Source: Pontiella sp. | GTDB lineage: Bacteria; Verrucomicrobiota; Kiritimatiellia; Kiritimatiellales; Pontiellaceae | Length of the DNA: 64,000 nt | Direction: 5' to 3' | Assembly: GCA_050290185.1 (NCBI GenBank) | Contig: JBNKHE010000008.1 | Span: 148,647-212,646 of the forward strand | Made by a program: the position numbers | In this document: positions 18,001-39,000 of the stretch, one piece after another | Numbering within the stretch: position 1 is the first letter of the stretch | How the letters are laid out: every line of letters begins with the position of its first letter

Positions 18001-21000
18001 GGCCTCCCTGGTGGAGGCCTGTTAGGCTGTTGATAAACCCCGTCGTTCGACGGGGTTTATCTTTTCCCGGATGGATGCAGTCTGTCACCGCCGGTCGGTT
18101 TTCCGAAGTGATGTAACCCGAGTGTACTGGGCTCCCGTCCGCGGATCACTCTTCCTCTGCCAGCGGGAACATTGATGGAGTCGAAGCCACGCTTGCTTCT
18201 CCGAAGCCTACTTGTCGTTGGATTTCTTGTGCTTCTTGCGGCCGACCTGGCTTTCCTCGGGGGAGAGCCTTTCTCGGTCGGCGGGGCTTTCGCGGCCGGT
18301 GAAAGCGGTCCACTTGACGGGATATTCCTCTGGATCGAACATCACGAAGTAGAAGTGCCAGATCACAATGGCGGCGCAGGCGAGAATGGCTTCGTAGTAG
18401 TGGATGGCCGTGCAGACATCGTAGAACCATTTCGGGAAGTGGGCGAGGGTCCACTCCTCGTAGGTCATGAGCGTGCCGGTAAGCACCATGACGATCGAAC
18501 CCCAGACGAGCGCCCAGTATTCGGCCTTTTCGATGTAGCTGTAGTGTTCGAAGCGGGCGCGTTCCTTGCGCAGACCGAGGTAGAAACCGAACATCTGGAA
18601 GGCATGAACCACGTCCGACCAGCGCGGGGCAAGCTGTTTGATCTGCCAGCGACCGCGTTTGGTAAAGATGATGTAGCCGATGTGGTAGATGCTCAGGGCG
18701 ATGAAGATGATGGCCATCAATTTGTGTCCATATCCGCGCCAATCGGTCTGGCCAACGAAGGGGCTGGCCCACCAGGCATCCGGATTCACCAGCGCGAAGC
18801 CGGTGTAGCCGAGCACAATGAAGGTGATGGCAAGAATGGCATGCTGGATACGCTCGCTGATGGTCATGCGGTGCGGTGCACCCTCTTCTTCGAGTTTATG
18901 AAGGTGCTCACGAATTTTTCTGAATAGATCAAATCCGTTATGCACCAGCATGCCGCCCAGTACGACGATGAACAACCAAACGTAAATAGTGCGGACGATG
19001 CCGGTGGCCTTGTGCTCGACTCCGGGCCGAGTGCCGGAATGAATCTGGCCGCGGGCCACCTGGTCCGTCACGCCGGCATGGCAGACACTGCAGGTTTTCT
19101 TCAGGTTGTTGGGGTTGATAGAGGAACGTGGGTCGCTGGAGGGTAGGATGTCGTGCTTTCCGTGACAGGAGGCGCAGTTGGCCGCCGTGAGGGAGCCGAG
19201 TCGCATGGAGAGACCGTGGTAGCTTTCCATGTAGGTTTCGACGGCAAATTCAGGCAATCGGTATTTGGTGACGATGCGTTCGGCTGCATGGCACTCTGCG
19301 CAGGTGGCCGATATGTGTGCGGCCGAGACTTTGGAGTCATCGGAGTCGGTCGATGAAATGGTATGTTCACCATGGCAGTCGGTACAGGTGGGCGCATCAT
19401 GGACGCCTTCGCTCACGGCTATTCCATGCACGCTCCGCTGGTAGGTGTTGGCGATGTTTTCGTGGCATTTCCCGCAGGTGGTGGGAATGTTTTGCCAGTA
19501 CAGTTTCGATTTTGAGTCGGTGGATTTCAGCAGGTTGTGCGAGCCGTGGCAGTCGGTACAAACGGGGGCGGTCGATCCATCATGCCGTCCCATGGCCAAT
19601 CCATGGACGCTGTTTTCGTAACTGGAGATCGGTTCGAGCTGGTGAAGATTGAATTTCTTCATCTGCTCCACGTCGCCATGGCAACGGGCGCAGGTCGCTG
19701 CGATATTCTTCCGGTTGATGGTCGAGGCTTCATTTCTGGAGGAGATGATATAGTGCGAGTCGCCGTGGCAGTCCTTGCAGGTGGCCGCCTGATCGCGCCC
19801 TTTTCGCAAGGCGATGCCGTGGGAGCTTTGCAGGTAGATTTCCGATTCGATATCGTGGCATTCCGCACAGTCGACTTTTTTCAGCGGAGTGTCGTGCATG
19901 GGGTCTTCAATGTCGTCGTGGCAACTGGTGCATTCGTTGTCGGCATGGACGGATTGCCGGAAGCGTTCGCTGTCCACAGGACGGTCGGCATCGTCTTCTC
20001 CGTGGCATTCAAGGCAGTCGGCGTTGCTGATTTGTGCGCAGGTTGTGGAAACCGTTGAAAACAGTCCGATGGCGCAAAGCAGAAGAAGCAACGATGGGTA
20101 AGCTTTTTTCATAGTGTAAAGGTAGTTATAGGGCGACGCCAACGCAAATATAATCCGTACACATTGTGTGTGTATTTATCCCTGCGCGCCGAGCGCTAGT
20201 CTTCAAACAAAAAAAAAATAGCGGCGGATTTGATTCCGCCGCCATCGAGGTCAAAGGCATAAAACCTTATTTATAAACGAAAATCATCGAATAGATAATG
20301 CCGATGATCAGCGCGATTCCGATGGCCAGCGCGCACCAGGCAAAGAACGTGATGACCTTGACCTTGTGCTCCGGCATTGGATCGGCGAGACGCTCCTCCA
20401 GTTTTCCGGTGCGCACCATCTCTTCATATTCACCCGGCTTTTCATGCTTGAGATCTTCAAGAGGCATGCGGCCGGTGAAGATGACCTTGTCCATCGGGAA
20501 CTTCTCTGGACGGAAGTGCGTGTTAAAGAAGTGGATGCTGAAGATGAACCCGGCGGCCAGCAATGCTTCATCGCTGTGGATAATAGTTGCCACATTGATG
20601 GCCCAGCCCGGCAGGAAGTGGGAGAAGAATACCGGGAACCAGAGGATGAGCCCGGACATACCGATGACAGCAATCCCCCAGAATACGGCGAGATAGTCAA
20701 ATTTTTCCCAGTAGGTCCAGCGGCCGTATTGCGGGCGCGGGCCCTTGTGGAAATACCATTTGATGGTTTCGGCGAATTCCCGGAAGTCGCGCAGGGTTGG
20801 GAGCATGGTGTTCGGACCCAATAGCAATTCCTTCCAGGTTCCAAATTCGGTTTTCTTGCGGCGCGCCAGATCGTACAGATGAACAACGAAGATGACGACC
20901 ATGACGAGCGCCGCGGAACGATGCAGTACACCTGTCACCGTGAACCCGCCGAGCGCCTTGGAAACGGCGACCGCCCAGGGCGTATAGGCAAATTTCAGCG

Positions 21001-36000: not shown

Positions 36001-39000
36001 CGACCGCGACGTGTACGACCGGCAGATCGTCAAGCTGGCCAACAAGCTCTATACCTTTGACAACGTGCTATCTTCGTTCGAGGATCCGTCGACCTTTCCC
36101 AAGGACCAGCTGATGGCCACTGCGCAGCGCTATATGCAGCTGGAGGGCTACTCGCTTCCGCTCGTGATTCCGCCGCACGACGCCACGAAACGCTGGCGAC
36201 CGCTCATGAGTTCATTGCTGGCCGGGCCCATGACGACGCCCGATCCGCTGGCCGTCAAGTTCGCTGCCATGCTGCACGATTACCGGGATGGAAGTACCGC
36301 CGGATTCAATCATAATCTGATGGATTACGGCACGGCTGTGAGCCGTGCCAATCCGGAAGTCTTTAGGAAGCTTGGCTTCGAAGTGTTCTACAACCGGCTC
36401 GGCGCCTTTATGAAATCGGCCGAACTTTACCTGCTCGTCTTTGTCCTCAGTTGTATCGGCTGGCTGTTCCGCAAGCAGGGCCTGCTGGATGCCGCCCGCA
36501 CCCTGATGATCTTCGCCTTTATTCCGCACACGTTCGCCATCGTGGCCCGCGTTTTCCTCTCGGGCTATCCTCCGGTAACCAACCTCTACTCCTCCGCCAT
36601 CTTCATCGGATGGGCGGCGGTAGCGGTCGGTATCCTGATGGAAACCGTCTTTCGCAAGAAGGCTGACGGTATCGGCAATCTGGTCGGCGGCATTGCCGGT
36701 TTCACCACCTTGCTTATTGCCCATTTTCTTGCAGGCGACGGCGACACCATGGAGCAGATGCGCGCTGTGCTTGATACCCGCTTCTGGCTGGCCACGCATG
36801 TGACCATAGTAACACTCGGTTATATGGCTACATTTGTCGCCGGTACCATCGGCATGTTCTATGTCTTTGCCGGACTGTTCACCCGGCGGCTCGACACCGA
36901 GACCGAAGACGGCATGTACCGCATGCTTTACGGGACCGTCTGTTTCGCGCTGCTCCTCAGTTTTGTTGGAACAGTGCTCGGGGGCCTGTGGGCCGACGAT
37001 TCATGGGGGCGGTTCTGGGGCTGGGATCCCAAAGAAAACGGAGCGCTACTGATCGTGCTCTGGAACGCCATCATGCTCCATGCCCGCTACGGAAAAATGG
37101 TCAAGCACCGCGGTTTTGCCATCATGTCCATATTCGGCAACATCGTCACGGCCTGGTCGTGGTTTGGGGTCAACCAGCTCAACGTCGGTCTGCATTCCTA
37201 TGGCTTTACGGACTCGGCCGGCTTTTGGTTGATGGTTTTCATCCTTTCTCAGATGGCCATTTGCATGGCATGCCTTATTCCGCCGCGGTTTTGGAGAAGC
37301 GGTGCCACCCAAGGCTAGATGTAAACAGGATTGCAAGGCCATTTCCTGAGCGGTCCTGCGTATCGGTAAAGATACGGTATTTCTCTGTTGCTCCTGCACT
37401 GAGTGCTACGAATAAACAGACCAATAGAACCCCGGGCCCAATCTTCATCGTATTTATCCCATCTATATCGACGCCTTATTAATTATGGGAAGAGTTATCC
37501 GATTTGAACCATCAACAAAGCTCCCTGACGGGGAAGGGTTGGATTGCAAAGGTTGTAGGGAAAAAGAGACATATAGACTCATGTATTGGTTGAAGGATTA
37601 TAGTTGTTTATTTTGTGCCGTTATGGCACATGTGTAGGCATGAAACCGGGATTCTTTGATAAGCTGGTTGATCGGCTGGACCATTTGGACAAAGGTAGCC
37701 TTCAATCCTATTTCCTGCATTTGGCCAGGGAAAAGGGATTGATGGAGACCATCTTTCAGGCGCTGGAGGAGGGGATCATCGTGCTGGATCCCGACGCGCA
37801 GATCAGCTATGCGAACCGCGCCGCAGAACAGTTTCTCGGTTTCAAGCTCGAAACCGCCCTGGGAGTATCGATCCAGCGCTACCTCAAAGGGATCCACTGG
37901 GATCTGGTACTTGACCTCGACGAATACGAATGGAGCAAGCTGGTACGCCGGGAAATCGAGATCACCTATCCTCAGCACCGCTTCATGGAGTTCTACGTCG
38001 TTCCGCTGGCTGCCGTGGATGAAAAGGAGGAGGGGGCTGTCGTGATTTTTCGCGATGTCACCCGCGAACGGGAAAGTACCGCCGAGTCGATTGAATCCGA
38101 ACGGTTGCACGCCCTGAGCCTGCTGGCCGCCGGTGTGGCGCATGAAATTGGAAACCCGCTCAACTCCATCAATATCCATTTGCAGCTGCTGGATCGGGAA
38201 CTCGGCTTTATTGAAGATGAGCAGACCAGGAGTGATCTCCGTGAACTGGTCGATGTTTCACGTAAGGAAGTGGCCCGGCTGGATACCATCATTCGCCAGT
38301 TCCTCAAGGCGCTGCGCCCGTCGATGCCCGAGCGCAAGCCGCAACAGCTCTCCGGTTTGCTAGCCGAAACGCTGGATGTGATGAAACACGAGATCAAGGA
38401 TCGGCGCATGCTGGTTGAAACCGATTTTCCGGATAGGATTCCGGCGGTGGCGGTGGATGAAACGCAAGTTAAACAGGTGTTTTTCAACGTCATTAAGAAT
38501 GCTCTGCAGGCCATGGAGGACGGCGGCATACTGAAGGTCGAGACACAGCAGTCGGACCGGTTCGTAAGCGTGGTGGTCGAGGATAACGGGCCGGGCATCG
38601 ATCCCGAGAAGATGGGCGCGATTTACGAACCGTACCATACTACCAAGGCCGAAGGCACAGGCCTTGGCATGATGATTGTCCAGCGCATTATGCGCGACCA
38701 CGGCGGCGAGATCGAAATCAACTCCGGGCCGGGCAGGGGAACGAGGTTGATCCTTCGCTTCCCGCGCGAGGATGCCCGGATGAACCTTCTGGTCGCACCG
38801 GAAAAGGAGCATGAAAATGTCTAAACCCACGGTGTTAATTGTCGACGACGAAAAGAGTGCCCGTGATGGGCTGGTTCGGGCGTTGCGGCGCGACTACAAC
38901 GTGCTGGCTGCGGAAAATGGCAATTCCGCCCTGGAGGTGCTTTCGGAGCGGAGCATTGATGTTCTGCTGAGCGATGTCCGTATGCCGGGGATGGATGGGA

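Follow-up and report, generated by a model that had tools for sequence, protein, structure and literature searches.

Does Pontiella carry a route by which electrons from the quinone pool could leave the cell? The question is raised by a cluster of multihaem cytochrome genes at positions 18208–37318 of the window, a 64,000-nucleotide stretch of contig JBNKHE010000008.1 whose numbering is used throughout. The genes that the first-pass annotation had placed in this interval are all present (Table 1), and its count of 15 open reading frames with at least three CxxCH motifs in the genome was reproduced. The best reading of the set, to which we give a probability of about 60%, is quinol-fed extracellular electron transfer (EET) with a porin-cytochrome design. 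If this is correct, a marine sugar fermenter would gain an electron sink besides H2 or reduced products and an added sodium-motive step at Na+-NQR, and the set could permit respiration of metals or humic matter.

Gene content and order of the locus

Table 1. Features of the cytochrome locus and its surroundings, in window positions.
Feature	Position	Strand	Characteristics
CbcL-like A, candidate menaquinol oxidase	18208..20142	-	644 aa, signal/anchor, 11 CxxCH, C-terminal HydC/FdnI-type cytochrome b
CbcL-like B	20267..23140	-	957 aa, 19 CxxCH and cytochrome b; paralogue of A with duplicated haem module
p166	23270..23770	-	166 aa, secreted, three PPGHP-type repeats, no family
ImcH-like 7-haem inner-membrane cytochrome, candidate menaquinol oxidase	23790..25280	-	496 aa, 6 CxxCH and 1 CxxxCH
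Rrf2-family regulator	25489..25926	+	Between two divergent operons; Pfam Rrf2 E 9.5e-29
4-haem c554-like secreted cytochrome, candidate periplasmic shuttle	26166..26744	+	Cytochrome_C554 E 1.5e-15
HemA, glutamyl-tRNA reductase	26817..27911	+	Within cytochrome operon; TIGR01035 331 bits (cut-off 209.55)
MHC9, secreted nonahaem cytochrome, OcwA family	27946..30195	+	749 aa
Outer-membrane beta-barrel	30253..31623	+	456 aa, predicted 22 strands, no named family
MHC12, 12-haem lipoprotein	31620..32621	+	333 aa, c7/c3-type units, ..LLSG|C
p223a, membrane-anchored	32633..33304	-	One N-terminal hydrophobic segment; trio-syntenic
p223b, probable lipoprotein	33408..34079	+	..LIAGC; no Pfam match
ResB-like cytochrome c biogenesis protein (System II)	34110..35570	+	Pfam ResB E 2.4e-17
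CcsA/CcsB haem-handling protein	35570..37318	+	Cytochrom_C_asm E 5.1e-22
PAS histidine kinase and sigma-54-type response regulator	37604..40163	+	Syntenic, downstream of the set

The same arrangement was found in 28 independent loci and is therefore no product of chance. The Rrf2 regulator is syntenic in Pontiella loci with 70–75% identity and scores above the NCBIfam rrf2_super cut-off. The kinase and sigma-54-type regulator downstream occupy the same position in five loci (L018, L020, L022, L024 and L025) with 84–91% identity; no –24/–12 consensus was found near the cluster. The small proteins also recur, p223a in 19 of the 28 loci (27–59% identity; L030, L033, L036, L037 and L040 among them) and p223b in Pontiella-type loci (59–68%). 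Beside CbcL or CcsA genes, p166 is found with 36–63% identity in L018, L019, L029, L033 and L038–L040. It has no Pfam match; its Atlas score, which serves for leads only, is 0.83.

Proposed quinol oxidation at the inner membrane

We judged likeness to the ImcH and CbcL proteins of Geobacter sulfurreducens solely by published sequence features (Zhong & Shi, 2018; PMC6295460). As in G. sulfurreducens ImcH, the ImcH-like protein has three N-terminal hydrophobic segments (residues 10–36, 54–72 and 101–119), a CX3CH motif adjoining the third (CGKTCH at 132) and six CX2CH motifs. At the level of sequence, the protein has all of the features that Zhong & Shi (PMC6295460) give for ImcH homologues. It matches the NapC/NirT N-terminal region (E 8.5e-11). 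The best 120 matches of the protein carry generic names only.

Two further genes had been described as fusions of a multihaem cytochrome c with a cytochrome b, and this description was borne out. Both fit the CbcL/MtoC/MtrH architecture and pass the Ni_hydr_CYTB cut-off of 30.1 bits, CbcL-like A with 58.5 bits (E 9.6e-16, residues 425–603) and CbcL-like B with 31.5 bits. They share with G. sulfurreducens CbcL an N-terminal multihaem c domain joined to a HydC/FdnI-type cytochrome b; that protein has 9 haem motifs compared with 11 and 19 here, and the listed homologues range from 3 to 23. The motifs of A lie between residues 43 and 355. B is 31% identical to A over its full length (E 3e-83), and four histidines of the membrane domain align between the two. 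The homologues listed by Zhong & Shi (2018; PMC6295460) include CbcL from Verrucomicrobia (four) and Lentisphaerae (one) and ImcH from Verrucomicrobia (one).

The genome contains futalosine-pathway genes, among them MqnA-family genes, as well as NqrA, NqrB and NqrF of Na+-NQR and four secretins. We infer that NADH from sugar oxidation would reduce menaquinone via Na+-NQR, and that menaquinol would be oxidised at the inner membrane by the ImcH-like protein and the two CbcL-like bc cytochromes. The 4-haem c554-like protein may then carry electrons across the periplasm, while HemA and the sole ResB/CcsA pair would supply and attach the haem. The pair had been regarded as the cluster's own, but no Cytochrom_C_asm gene other than this CcsA was found in the genome, so CcsA is not a dedicated extra copy. 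It matches TIGR03144 with E 4.1e-37, but at 128.3 bits this is below the cut-off of 187.6.

Since bd and cbb3-type oxidases are also encoded, along with a Rieske/cytochrome b complex, the quinol oxidases need not be confined to an export route. Electrons might even flow inward, from Fe(II), a cathode or a reduced shuttle to the quinone pool or the bd/cbb3 oxidases. The presence of these complexes is consistent with this, as is the occurrence of CbcL/MtoC/MtrH homologues in Fe(III) reducers and Fe(II) oxidisers alike (PMC6295460). By contrast, the ImcH homologues found by Zhong & Shi were only in Fe(III) reducers (PMC6295460), and the relatives of this bacterium are sugar fermenters with surplus electrons. 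We give inward flow very little credence.

The nonahaem cytochrome, the barrel and the 12-haem lipoprotein

MHC9 consists, in order, of an N-terminal beta domain, a nine-haem core with two His-His motifs, a helical region, TSP3 repeats (TSP3_bac E 9.9e-13) and a C-terminal beta domain. Repeats of the TSP3 type are common on large proteins of congeners. When compared with the PDB, profile A5 matched OcwA (6i5b) with E 1.4e-17 in five collinear stretches, and more weakly NrfA (1oah, E 2.4e-6) and MccA (3.1e-4). HH 306/307 is kept in 12 of 14 sequences and HH 429/430 in 13 of 14. On these comparisons MHC9 is a homologue of OcwA, which has been characterised as a terminal reductase of the cell surface (PMC6703420). 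OcwA of Thermincola potens shares with MHC9 nine CxxCH motifs and both distal His-His motifs, and the match is collinear across the entire core and the C-terminal helical portion. The two beta domains and the TSP3 repeats go beyond OcwA. The latter belongs to a Gram-positive organism and lacks a barrel partner, whereas MHC9 has a barrel neighbour.

Soluble N or S compounds can be the substrates of enzymes with an OcwA-family or NrfA/MccA-like core in which haem sites are open. MHC9 could be such an enzyme, fed from quinol by the ImcH-like and CbcL-like proteins and reducing nitrite, hydroxylamine, sulfite, polysulfide or a similar compound for respiration or detoxification, with the barrel as substrate porin or anchor. 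The alignment of its core with OcwA, NrfA and MccA fits this idea, as do the two His-His motifs, whose counterparts in OcwA lie over penta-coordinate haems; OcwA is able to reduce both nitrite and hydroxylamine (PMC6703420). Detoxification would pay, since nitrite and sulfite inhibit the growth of Pontiella (PMC7356697). However, OcwA turns nitrite over slowly (kcat 1 per min; PMC6703420), and the MHC9 sequence contains neither a CxxCK motif nor the long haem motif of the MccA type. The haem counts and a weak NrfH-like match lead us to assume that a separate pair of 4-haem and 5-haem genes on contig C4 is NrfHA. Action on a soluble substrate would also not account for the invariant pairing of MHC9 with a 22-strand barrel and with a lipid-anchored 12–26-haem wire, and we regard this reading as unlikely.

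For the barrel, the absence of a Pfam family and the number of relatives (148 representatives at E<=1e-3 among 1.84 billion) were both reproduced, and there was no NCBIfam or PDB sequence match. The all-beta barrel proposed earlier was recovered in a new AF2 model from 60 sequences (pLDDT 87.0, pTM 0.80, no plug), in which we counted 22 strands instead of about 23. Among solved structures (VIA), the best matches to the model are 22-strand TonB-dependent transporter barrels (Z 18–19.8); MtrB ranks 19th with Z 15.8, below generic 22-strand barrels. MtrB has 26 strands, and the barrel here has no MtrB_PioB Pfam match. As modelled, it is as wide as the TonB-dependent transporter barrels, with room for a haem wire.

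The stop codon of the barrel gene overlaps the start of MHC12. The earlier assignment of MHC12 as a lipoprotein agrees with the alignment, where G21 and C22 are invariant in 20 of 20 sequences and the 12 CxxCH motifs are conserved. Its profile matches ActA, Hmc and c7-like domains, and C-terminal di-haem repeats bring relatives to 18–26 haems. In E. coli, Asp behind the lipid-bearing Cys leads to retention in the inner membrane. Asp occupies this position in 10 of 20 relatives, which by that rule counts against export.

MtrCAB of Shewanella, OmaB/OmbB/OmcB of Geobacter and the Ext clusters likewise place the gene of a large outer-membrane barrel next to those of a secreted multihaem cytochrome and a multihaem lipoprotein; for Omb and Ext proteins the likeness is one of gene arrangement only. 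MHC12 equals MtrA of Shewanella in length. Searches of Pfam, NCBIfam and the PDB linked neither the barrel nor MHC12 by homology to a proven conduit, and MHC9 is of the OcwA and not of the MtrC/OmcA type. The Geobacter-type route proposed earlier thus holds for the inner-membrane part, with its ImcH and CbcL features, but not for the conduit, given the OcwA-type MHC9 and a barrel in no named family. For electron export, which we prefer, the c7-type wire MHC12 and the barrel would form the outer-membrane passage. MHC9, for which we favour the outer face, would pass electrons to Fe(III), Mn(IV), humic quinones or a partner cell.

The same conduit could have a partner cell as its natural acceptor, with direct interspecies transfer to sulfate reducers or methanogens and not to minerals or humics. 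Its anatomy would be identical, and Pontiella act as primary degraders in anoxic sediments, a setting in which fermentation is limited by H2 and the disposal of electrons; in a 2026 survey preprint the modelled sink is H2. The high haem numbers of MHC12 relatives are what one would expect if the reach were longer. We noticed neither a pilin gene nor one for a filament-forming cytochrome at the locus, however, and isolates reduce AQDS/MnO2 and ferric citrate (PMC7356697), so abiotic acceptors are used in the genus. Transfer to partners alone seems to us quite improbable.

Distribution of the gene set and published metal reduction

On each side of the barrel 25 of the 28 loci were assessable. 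All 25 have MHC12 downstream, 23 of 25 have MHC9 upstream, and the trio is a tightly conserved module. These loci belong to Pontiella, other Kiritimatiellales, MAGs labelled Lentisphaerae or Victivallales, lake MAGs and a few other MAGs. The 4-haem c554-like cytochrome stays with the trio in distant loci (L029 and L038–L041; 50–59% identity).

The distribution of the trio is patchy. The barrel is present in 8 of 36 other genomes of the genus, and its profile detected 10 of 401 genomes in a sample of the phylum, this genome included. CbcL-like A was found in 10 of the 36 and strong full-length matches to the ImcH-like protein in 13; all 8 barrel-bearing genomes have both, in five cases on a single contig. 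Five large genomes of the genus (at least 94% complete) gave no barrel, MHC12 or full-length ImcH-like match, and MHC9 was matched at its C-terminal TSP3 part only. One of the five is 8.7 Mb in 6 contigs. They possibly include type strains, in which case the published metal reduction would be independent of this gene set.

The genus had been described as known only for fermentation, with no paper on multihaem cytochromes or iron reduction. Both statements are contradicted by van Vliet (2020; PMC7356697), where Pontiella F1 and F21 are reported to reduce ferric citrate, S0 and AQDS/MnO2, to produce menaquinones and to encode periplasmic or extracellular c-type cytochromes. The same source reports no growth of the isolates on H2 with AQDS/MnO2, and metal reduction also by the cytochrome-free K. 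glycovorans. With the set not found in five genomes, these reports argue that metal reduction in the group needs no such set. The claim that mineral respiration would be new to Kiritimatiellales was also overstated, being preceded by PMC7356697, PMC6295460 and Peterson (2020; 10.1101/2020.04.01.018762), who mentions porin-cytochrome operons in Kiritimatiellaeota bins. The Peterson clusters and those of freshwater Verrucomicrobia (He, 2017; PMC5615132), from the same phylum-level group, were proposed to transfer electrons to humics or iron. Both sets, as described, have an unnamed porin of at least 20 strands beside multihaem cytochromes, and it is by these descriptions only that their barrels compare with the one here. 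The adjacent periplasmic cytochrome of He (2017) has eight conserved haem sites, as compared with 9 and 12 in the neighbours of this barrel.

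Gene content and candidate inner-membrane quinol oxidases

Listing and translation of ORFs gave two divergent gene groups at window positions 18208–37318, where a first-pass annotation had read a Geobacter-style set of genes for extracellular electron transfer (EET). The window covers positions 148647–212646 of contig C8. The ORFs, their translations and the family assignments all confirmed that this gene set is present there in the source genome (3.58 Mb, 163 contigs, 95.5% complete). Two counts given in that annotation, 15 ORFs with at least three CxxCH motifs in the genome and 148 relatives of the barrel among 1.84 billion representatives, were also reproduced. 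Three matches to the sigma-54 promoter consensus were found in the window against six expected by chance, none of them near the cytochrome cluster, and no RNA runs were listed for the trio of 9-haem cytochrome (MHC9), barrel and 12-haem lipoprotein cytochrome (MHC12).

Coordinates within the window of the cytochrome gene cluster and neighbouring features
Feature	Position	Strand	Description
Subtilase (S8)	3027–5186	+	
Tetrapyrrole genes	8797–12418	-	porphobilinogen deaminase (HemC)/tetrapyrrole methylase/HemD fusion; SirC-like NAD-binding/glutamyl-tRNA-reductase-like (HemA-like) fusion
4-haem cytochrome	12800–13603	+	secreted, 268 aa
p166-like ORF	13610–13954	-	115 aa
CbcL-like A-related stretch	14063–14146	-	28 residues
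Subtilase (S8), larger	14455–17991	+	1178 aa
CbcL-like A	18208–20142	-	644 aa, 11 CxxCH
CbcL-like B	20267–23140	-	957 aa, 19 CxxCH
p166	23270–23770	-	secreted, 166 aa, PPGHP-type repeats
ImcH-like	23790–25280	-	496 aa, 6 CxxCH + one CxxxCH
Rrf2 regulator	25489–25926	+	
c554-like 4-haem cytochrome	26166–26744	+	
HemA	26817–27911	+	
MHC9	27946–30195	+	9-haem cytochrome
Barrel	30253–31623	+	456 aa, no family
MHC12	31620–32621	+	12-haem lipoprotein; ATG overlaps barrel stop
p223a, p223b	between MHC12 and ResB		two small unknowns
ResB	34110–35570	+	
CcsA	35570–37318	+	
PAS histidine kinase + sigma-54-type response regulator	37604–40163	+	after CcsA
Bat-type operon	48633–57713	-	BatA/BatD, von Willebrand A, TPR, MoxR-type ATPase

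ImcH homologues have been defined by three N-terminal transmembrane motifs, an adjoining atypical CX3CH and a NapC/NirT-like stretch that takes in the third helix and the first haems; they carry six CX2CH motifs (five to nine in distant homologues), are 495–519 aa long in Geobacter, and outside that genus are 31.5–49% identical to the G. sulfurreducens protein (Zhong and Shi, 2018, PMC6295460). The ImcH-like protein of the window has three N-terminal hydrophobic segments (10–36, 54–72 and 101–119, from a crude Kyte-Doolittle hydropathy scan rather than TMHMM), CGKTCH at 132, CxxCH at 157, 206, 317, 426, 446 and 486, and a PF03264 (NapC/NirT) match over 102–190 (E 8.5e-11). Judged from sequence, it appears to have every feature by which an ImcH homologue is recognized. 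Its family is very large: a homologue search gave no fewer than 7998 clusters at E ≤ 1e-20, the best 120 of which were all at least 53% identical, PVC-type and with generic names only.

In CbcL-like A and B, Ni_hydr_CYTB was matched at 58.5 and 31.5 bits, respectively (gathering cut-off 30.1), C-terminal to the haem motifs. Both fit the CbcL/MtoC/MtrH architecture, in which an N-terminal multihaem c domain is joined to a C-terminal HydC/FdnI-type cytochrome b, because their haem-motif counts and lengths fall within the ranges listed for such homologues, 3–23 motifs and 416–1034 aa (PMC6295460). The two are paralogues with 31% identity over their full length, the haem module being duplicated in B, and four membrane-domain His residues, candidate ligands of the b haems, align when the two are compared with each other rather than with CbcL. 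Each protein shows four to five hydrophobic segments (crude scan, threshold 1.6); six transmembrane helices, rarely four or five, are described for the C-terminal half of the homologues (PMC6295460). On the same strand, the 115-aa ORF listed in the table matches the N-terminal 53 residues of p166 (43% identity, E 1e-10), and the 28-residue stretch matches the end of CbcL-like A at the C-terminus with 79% identity. From these alignments, the two look like decayed remains of a second cbcL/p166 unit.

A CbcBA-like pair was also suspected on contig C7 and was rejected, as this cluster is a Rieske/cytochrome b/cbb3 oxidase. It spans 11.5–18 kb (locus L057) and encodes in a row a Rieske protein, cytochrome b, a multihaem/cbb3-type cytochrome c fusion and a COX1-family oxidase subunit. 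Contig C1 encodes a bd oxidase, and with these two systems the genome also has microaerobic respiratory potential.

The barrel and its neighbouring cytochromes

An AF2 model of the barrel from 60 sequences (pLDDT 87.0, pTM 0.80) has 22 strands by our count, running from residue 34 to the end. The best matches in VIA-align were TonB-dependent transporter barrels of 22 strands, plugs excluded (5t3r_D, Z 19.8; Cir, 19.3; FyuA, 18.9). MtrB (6r2q_B) came at rank 19 (Z 15.8, rmsd 6.5, 359 aligned residues), with transporter barrels of 22 strands above it at Z 18–19.8. Foldseek gave the generic porins AlgE, OccK and MOMP at TM 0.34–0.45 and no specific relative. At the sequence level the barrel had no match in Pfam (E ≤ 0.01), in NCBIfam or among PDB chains (phmmer, E ≤ 10), and the 60-sequence profile did not find MtrB in the PDB, its sole match being an unrelated chain at E 0.29. 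Membership in the MtrB/PioB family was therefore rejected by sequence, since neither MtrB nor Pfam MtrB_PioB, which we take to be the family of the MtrB/PioB barrel, was matched. As modelled, the barrel is wide and has no plug, and its family is unnamed. A complex prediction for barrel residues 29–456 with MHC12 residues 22–333, run without controls, scored 0.09 against a mark of 0.32 and carries no weight either way.

Two lipobox residues of MHC12, G21 and C22, do not vary in any of 20 relatives aligned with it, and conservation extends to the 12 haem motifs. Relatives reach 18–26 haems through inserted C-terminal di-haem repeats of about 38 residues (HPNPH..W..HC..CH). Such larger forms are the cytochromes downstream of the barrel at loci L029–L037, L040 and L043 of our comparison, and their first 12 haems and lipobox are unchanged. 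The MHC12 profile matches c7/c3-type wires (ActA at 4.7e-12, Hmc, c7-like domains and 3ov0), whereas MtrA was matched at only 0.007. The lipid-bearing Cys is followed by Asp in 10 of the 20 relatives, and in E. coli Asp at this position causes inner-membrane retention.

The first-pass annotation had likened the 9-haem cytochrome to MccA. Its primary likeness, however, is to neither MccA nor MtrC. Against 6i5b the MHC9 profile (A5) gave E 1.4e-17, with five stretches aligned collinearly over the whole core (profile 167–605, chain 14–498), and the matches to 6qvm (2.5e-8), NrfA (2.4e-6) and MccA (3.1e-4) were weaker. Code 6I5B is contained in the description of OcwA, the nonahaem cell-surface terminal reductase of Thermincola (Costa 2019, PMC6703420), in which haems 2 and 5 are open (penta-coordinate) under distal His-His motifs and a C-terminal helical bundle is present. 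MHC9 resembles OcwA in its nine CxxCH motifs, collinear core and C-terminal helical part. The His-His pairs of OcwA align with the only two in MHC9, SHH at 305–307 and PHH at 428–430, which are kept in 12 and 13 of 14 relatives, respectively. Putative open haem sites also keep alive the explanation that MHC9 is an enzyme for soluble nitrogen or sulfur compounds.

Beyond the part shared with OcwA, MHC9 carries a beta domain at either terminus and two TSP3 repeats. Its AF2 model (14 sequences) has low confidence over the haem core (mean pLDDT 49.3) and was used for the flanking beta domains and helices only. The localization features of MHC9 are a signal peptide and the TSP3 repeats only; we take the TSP3 tail as a likely mark of exported or surface proteins. 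With four secretins encoded in the genome, export by type II secretion is possible. Five genomes of the genus without the cluster match MHC9 through its TSP3 and C-terminal part only, at 12–34 places each and frequently within very large ORFs. Atlas look-ups with the MHC9 C-terminus and with p166 returned unnamed clusters only. The secreted 4-haem cytochrome upstream of the cluster has a TSP3-like stretch and a C-terminal beta domain (end ..VRFYRIRSIP) with 30% identity to the MHC9 tail (E 5e-6), and by this likeness it may be a second exported cytochrome with the same anchoring or sorting module.

Conservation and distribution of the module

Related loci were collected by scanning one genome per species with a 6-sequence barrel alignment, which reaches close relatives only. 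Barrel relatives are encoded at 28 loci, in Pontiella MAGs, 'Pontiellaceae bacterium B1224', Kiritimatiellales, MAGs labelled as Victivallales, Lentisphaerae or Verrucomicrobiota, unlabelled lake MAGs, one Deltaproteobacteria MAG and one unclassified MAG. The window proteins were then compared with these loci by local tblastn. An MHC12 homologue lies directly downstream of the barrel in all 25 loci with sequence there, the other three ending within the barrel gene. Directly upstream, an MHC9 homologue is found in 23 of the 25 loci with enough flank (three others have less than 450 bases), and the two loci without it, L043 and L045, are the most distant ones. The trio thus shows the generic porin-cytochrome layout, with a barrel of about 20 strands or more beside secreted and lipoprotein multihaem cytochromes that is kept across genomes.

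Pontiella-type loci keep the full order of ImcH, Rrf2, 4-haem cytochrome, HemA, MHC9, barrel, MHC12, p223a, p223b, ResB, CcsA and kinase. At the distant loci L038–L040 the trio is followed by the 4-haem cytochrome, ResB/CcsA, p166 and a CbcL-A homologue. The genes for the inner membrane and those for the outer membrane thus stay linked far outside Pontiella.

Distribution within the genus is patchy. Among 36 other species, the barrel occurs in eight, CbcL-like A in 10 and a full-length ImcH-like gene in 13; another 13 genomes gave only NrfH-like matches of 22–30 bits with the ImcH-like protein. All eight barrel-bearing genomes have both quinol-oxidase types. In five large same-genus genomes, all 94–96% complete and one of them an 8.7-Mb assembly of 6 contigs, searches matched no barrel, MHC12 or full-length ImcH-like protein, and MHC9 matched through its TSP3 tail only. 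Barrel, ImcH-like and CbcL-like A were absent from all 24 genomes searched in three other families of the order. In a phylum sample of 401 evenly drawn genomes, source genome included, the barrel profile matched 10, of which three belong to the genus and four to three other families of its class. The remaining three come from elsewhere, and two of those matches are weak. The record of B1224 (locus L028) carries no MAG tag, and this may be a culture in which the EET set can be tested.

A possible second conduit was seen on contig C3 at 175.9–181.2 kb (L058, 3011–9224). Behind an FAD/Fe-S oxidoreductase it encodes a 299-aa multi-helix membrane protein without a family, cytochromes of 20 and 24 haems, and a 603-aa family-less protein (..LRYSW). 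This last protein occurs in five of the 36 same-genus genomes; by profile comparison it resembles the barrel family only weakly and locally (31% probability).

Proposed electron path and relation to published work

We read the gene set as serving outward EET, with a probability of roughly 60%. Electrons from NADH would enter menaquinone through Na+-NQR, and the ImcH-like and CbcL-like proteins would oxidize the menaquinol. The 4-haem cytochrome would act as a periplasmic shuttle, MHC12 and the barrel would carry electrons over the outer membrane, and MHC9 would be the terminal reductase. Elsewhere in the genome, NqrA, NqrB and NqrF are encoded together on contig C5 (NqrB and NqrF above curated cut-offs), and a genome search did not find the complex I 49-kDa subunit. 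A futalosine route to menaquinone is indicated by two MqnA-family genes; MenA was not found. The CcsA of the locus is the sole Cytochrom_C_asm gene found in the genome and therefore serves all of its c-type cytochromes.

The arrangement at the outer membrane could also be the opposite one, with MHC9 periplasmic and MHC12 external, if it is analogous to that of OmaB/OmbB/OmcB (description in PMC5615132). Three features lead us to favour an external MHC9 and a non-external MHC12: MHC9 is related to a surface reductase, it bears the TSP3 tail, and MHC12 is translationally coupled to the barrel. The Asp residue in half of the MHC12 relatives counts against this favoured topology. With electrons leaving the cell, the acceptor could be a partner cell. 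Inward electron flow is the least likely reading because ImcH homologues are found only in reducers, according to the account of them in PMC6295460.

The earlier claim that mineral respiration would be new to the group is overstated. Strains F1 and F21 of Pontiella, as well as K. glycovorans, have been shown to reduce ferric citrate and S0, and also MnO2 when AQDS is present; F21 then releases about 75% less H2, and H2 plus AQDS/MnO2 did not support growth (van Vliet 2020, PMC7356697). The same paper describes F1 and F21 as producing menaquinones and encoding a few periplasmic or extracellular c-type cytochromes, and K. glycovorans as lacking menaquinones and c-type cytochromes and yet reducing metals (PMC7356697). 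The published metal reduction of the genus is probably independent of the gene set, and the Pontiella strains so far assayed for metal/AQDS reduction probably do not have it. A novel porin-multihaem cytochrome complex has been proposed in freshwater Verrucomicrobia (He 2017, PMC5615132), Kiritimatiellaeota bins contain porin-cytochrome operons that are not close to verified clusters (Peterson 2020, preprint 10.1101/2020.04.01.018762), and CbcL and ImcH homologues have already been listed for Verrucomicrobia and Lentisphaerae (Zhong and Shi, 2018, PMC6295460). These four studies weaken the novelty of the EET reading, which was partly anticipated; the reading itself is supported in part, by the gene set, the ImcH/CbcL features and the conserved module. 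In the literature on cytochromes, EET and iron reduction in Kiritimatiellia and Pontiella, we found no description of the gene set beyond the papers cited, and the terms cytochrome, heme/haem, respirat- and quinone never occur in a 2026 survey preprint of 898 Kiritimatiellia genomes. What is new here is the definition of a conserved module with an OcwA-type member, an expandable lipoprotein wire and an unnamed 22-strand barrel, together with its ImcH/CbcL linkage and patchy distribution.

Pontiella and its relatives are regarded as fermenters that shed electrons as H2. For a group whose models allow for fermentation alone, the gene set is a solid lead on respiration that can be put to the test. 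If the conduit works, it would do so in 9 of the 37 Pontiella species searched (source genome included), roughly between a fifth and a quarter of them. As primary degraders of sulfated algal glycans, these species could then respire iron, manganese or humics, or wire to partners, and models of carbon and electron flow in anoxic marine sediment would change. The set would also offer a candidate genetic basis for metal and AQDS reduction, so far unexplained in the group, and an OcwA-type terminal cytochrome would be shown to function alongside a barrel in a cell with two membranes. We put forward, as a tentative idea that we consider rather doubtful, that the barrel, the lipid-anchored c7-type wire (growing from 12 to 26 haems by C-terminal di-haem units) and the OcwA-type nonahaem cytochrome are a distinct conduit class common to Kiritimatiellia/Lentisphaerae-type bacteria and not derived from Mtr or Geobacter systems, which with ImcH/CbcL and Na+-NQR would make some marine polysaccharide fermenters true metal/humic respirers. 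This would directly link algal-glycan breakdown to iron and manganese cycling in sediments.

The tetrapyrrole fusions lie just upstream of the cytochromes and, counting the HemA of the cluster, there are two HemA-type genes within 20 kb. The larger subtilase, between the tetrapyrrole genes and the cytochromes, has a fervidolysin-like prodomain and long BspA-type leucine-rich repeats. Downstream of the cytochromes, the Bat-type operon is of the aerotolerance type.
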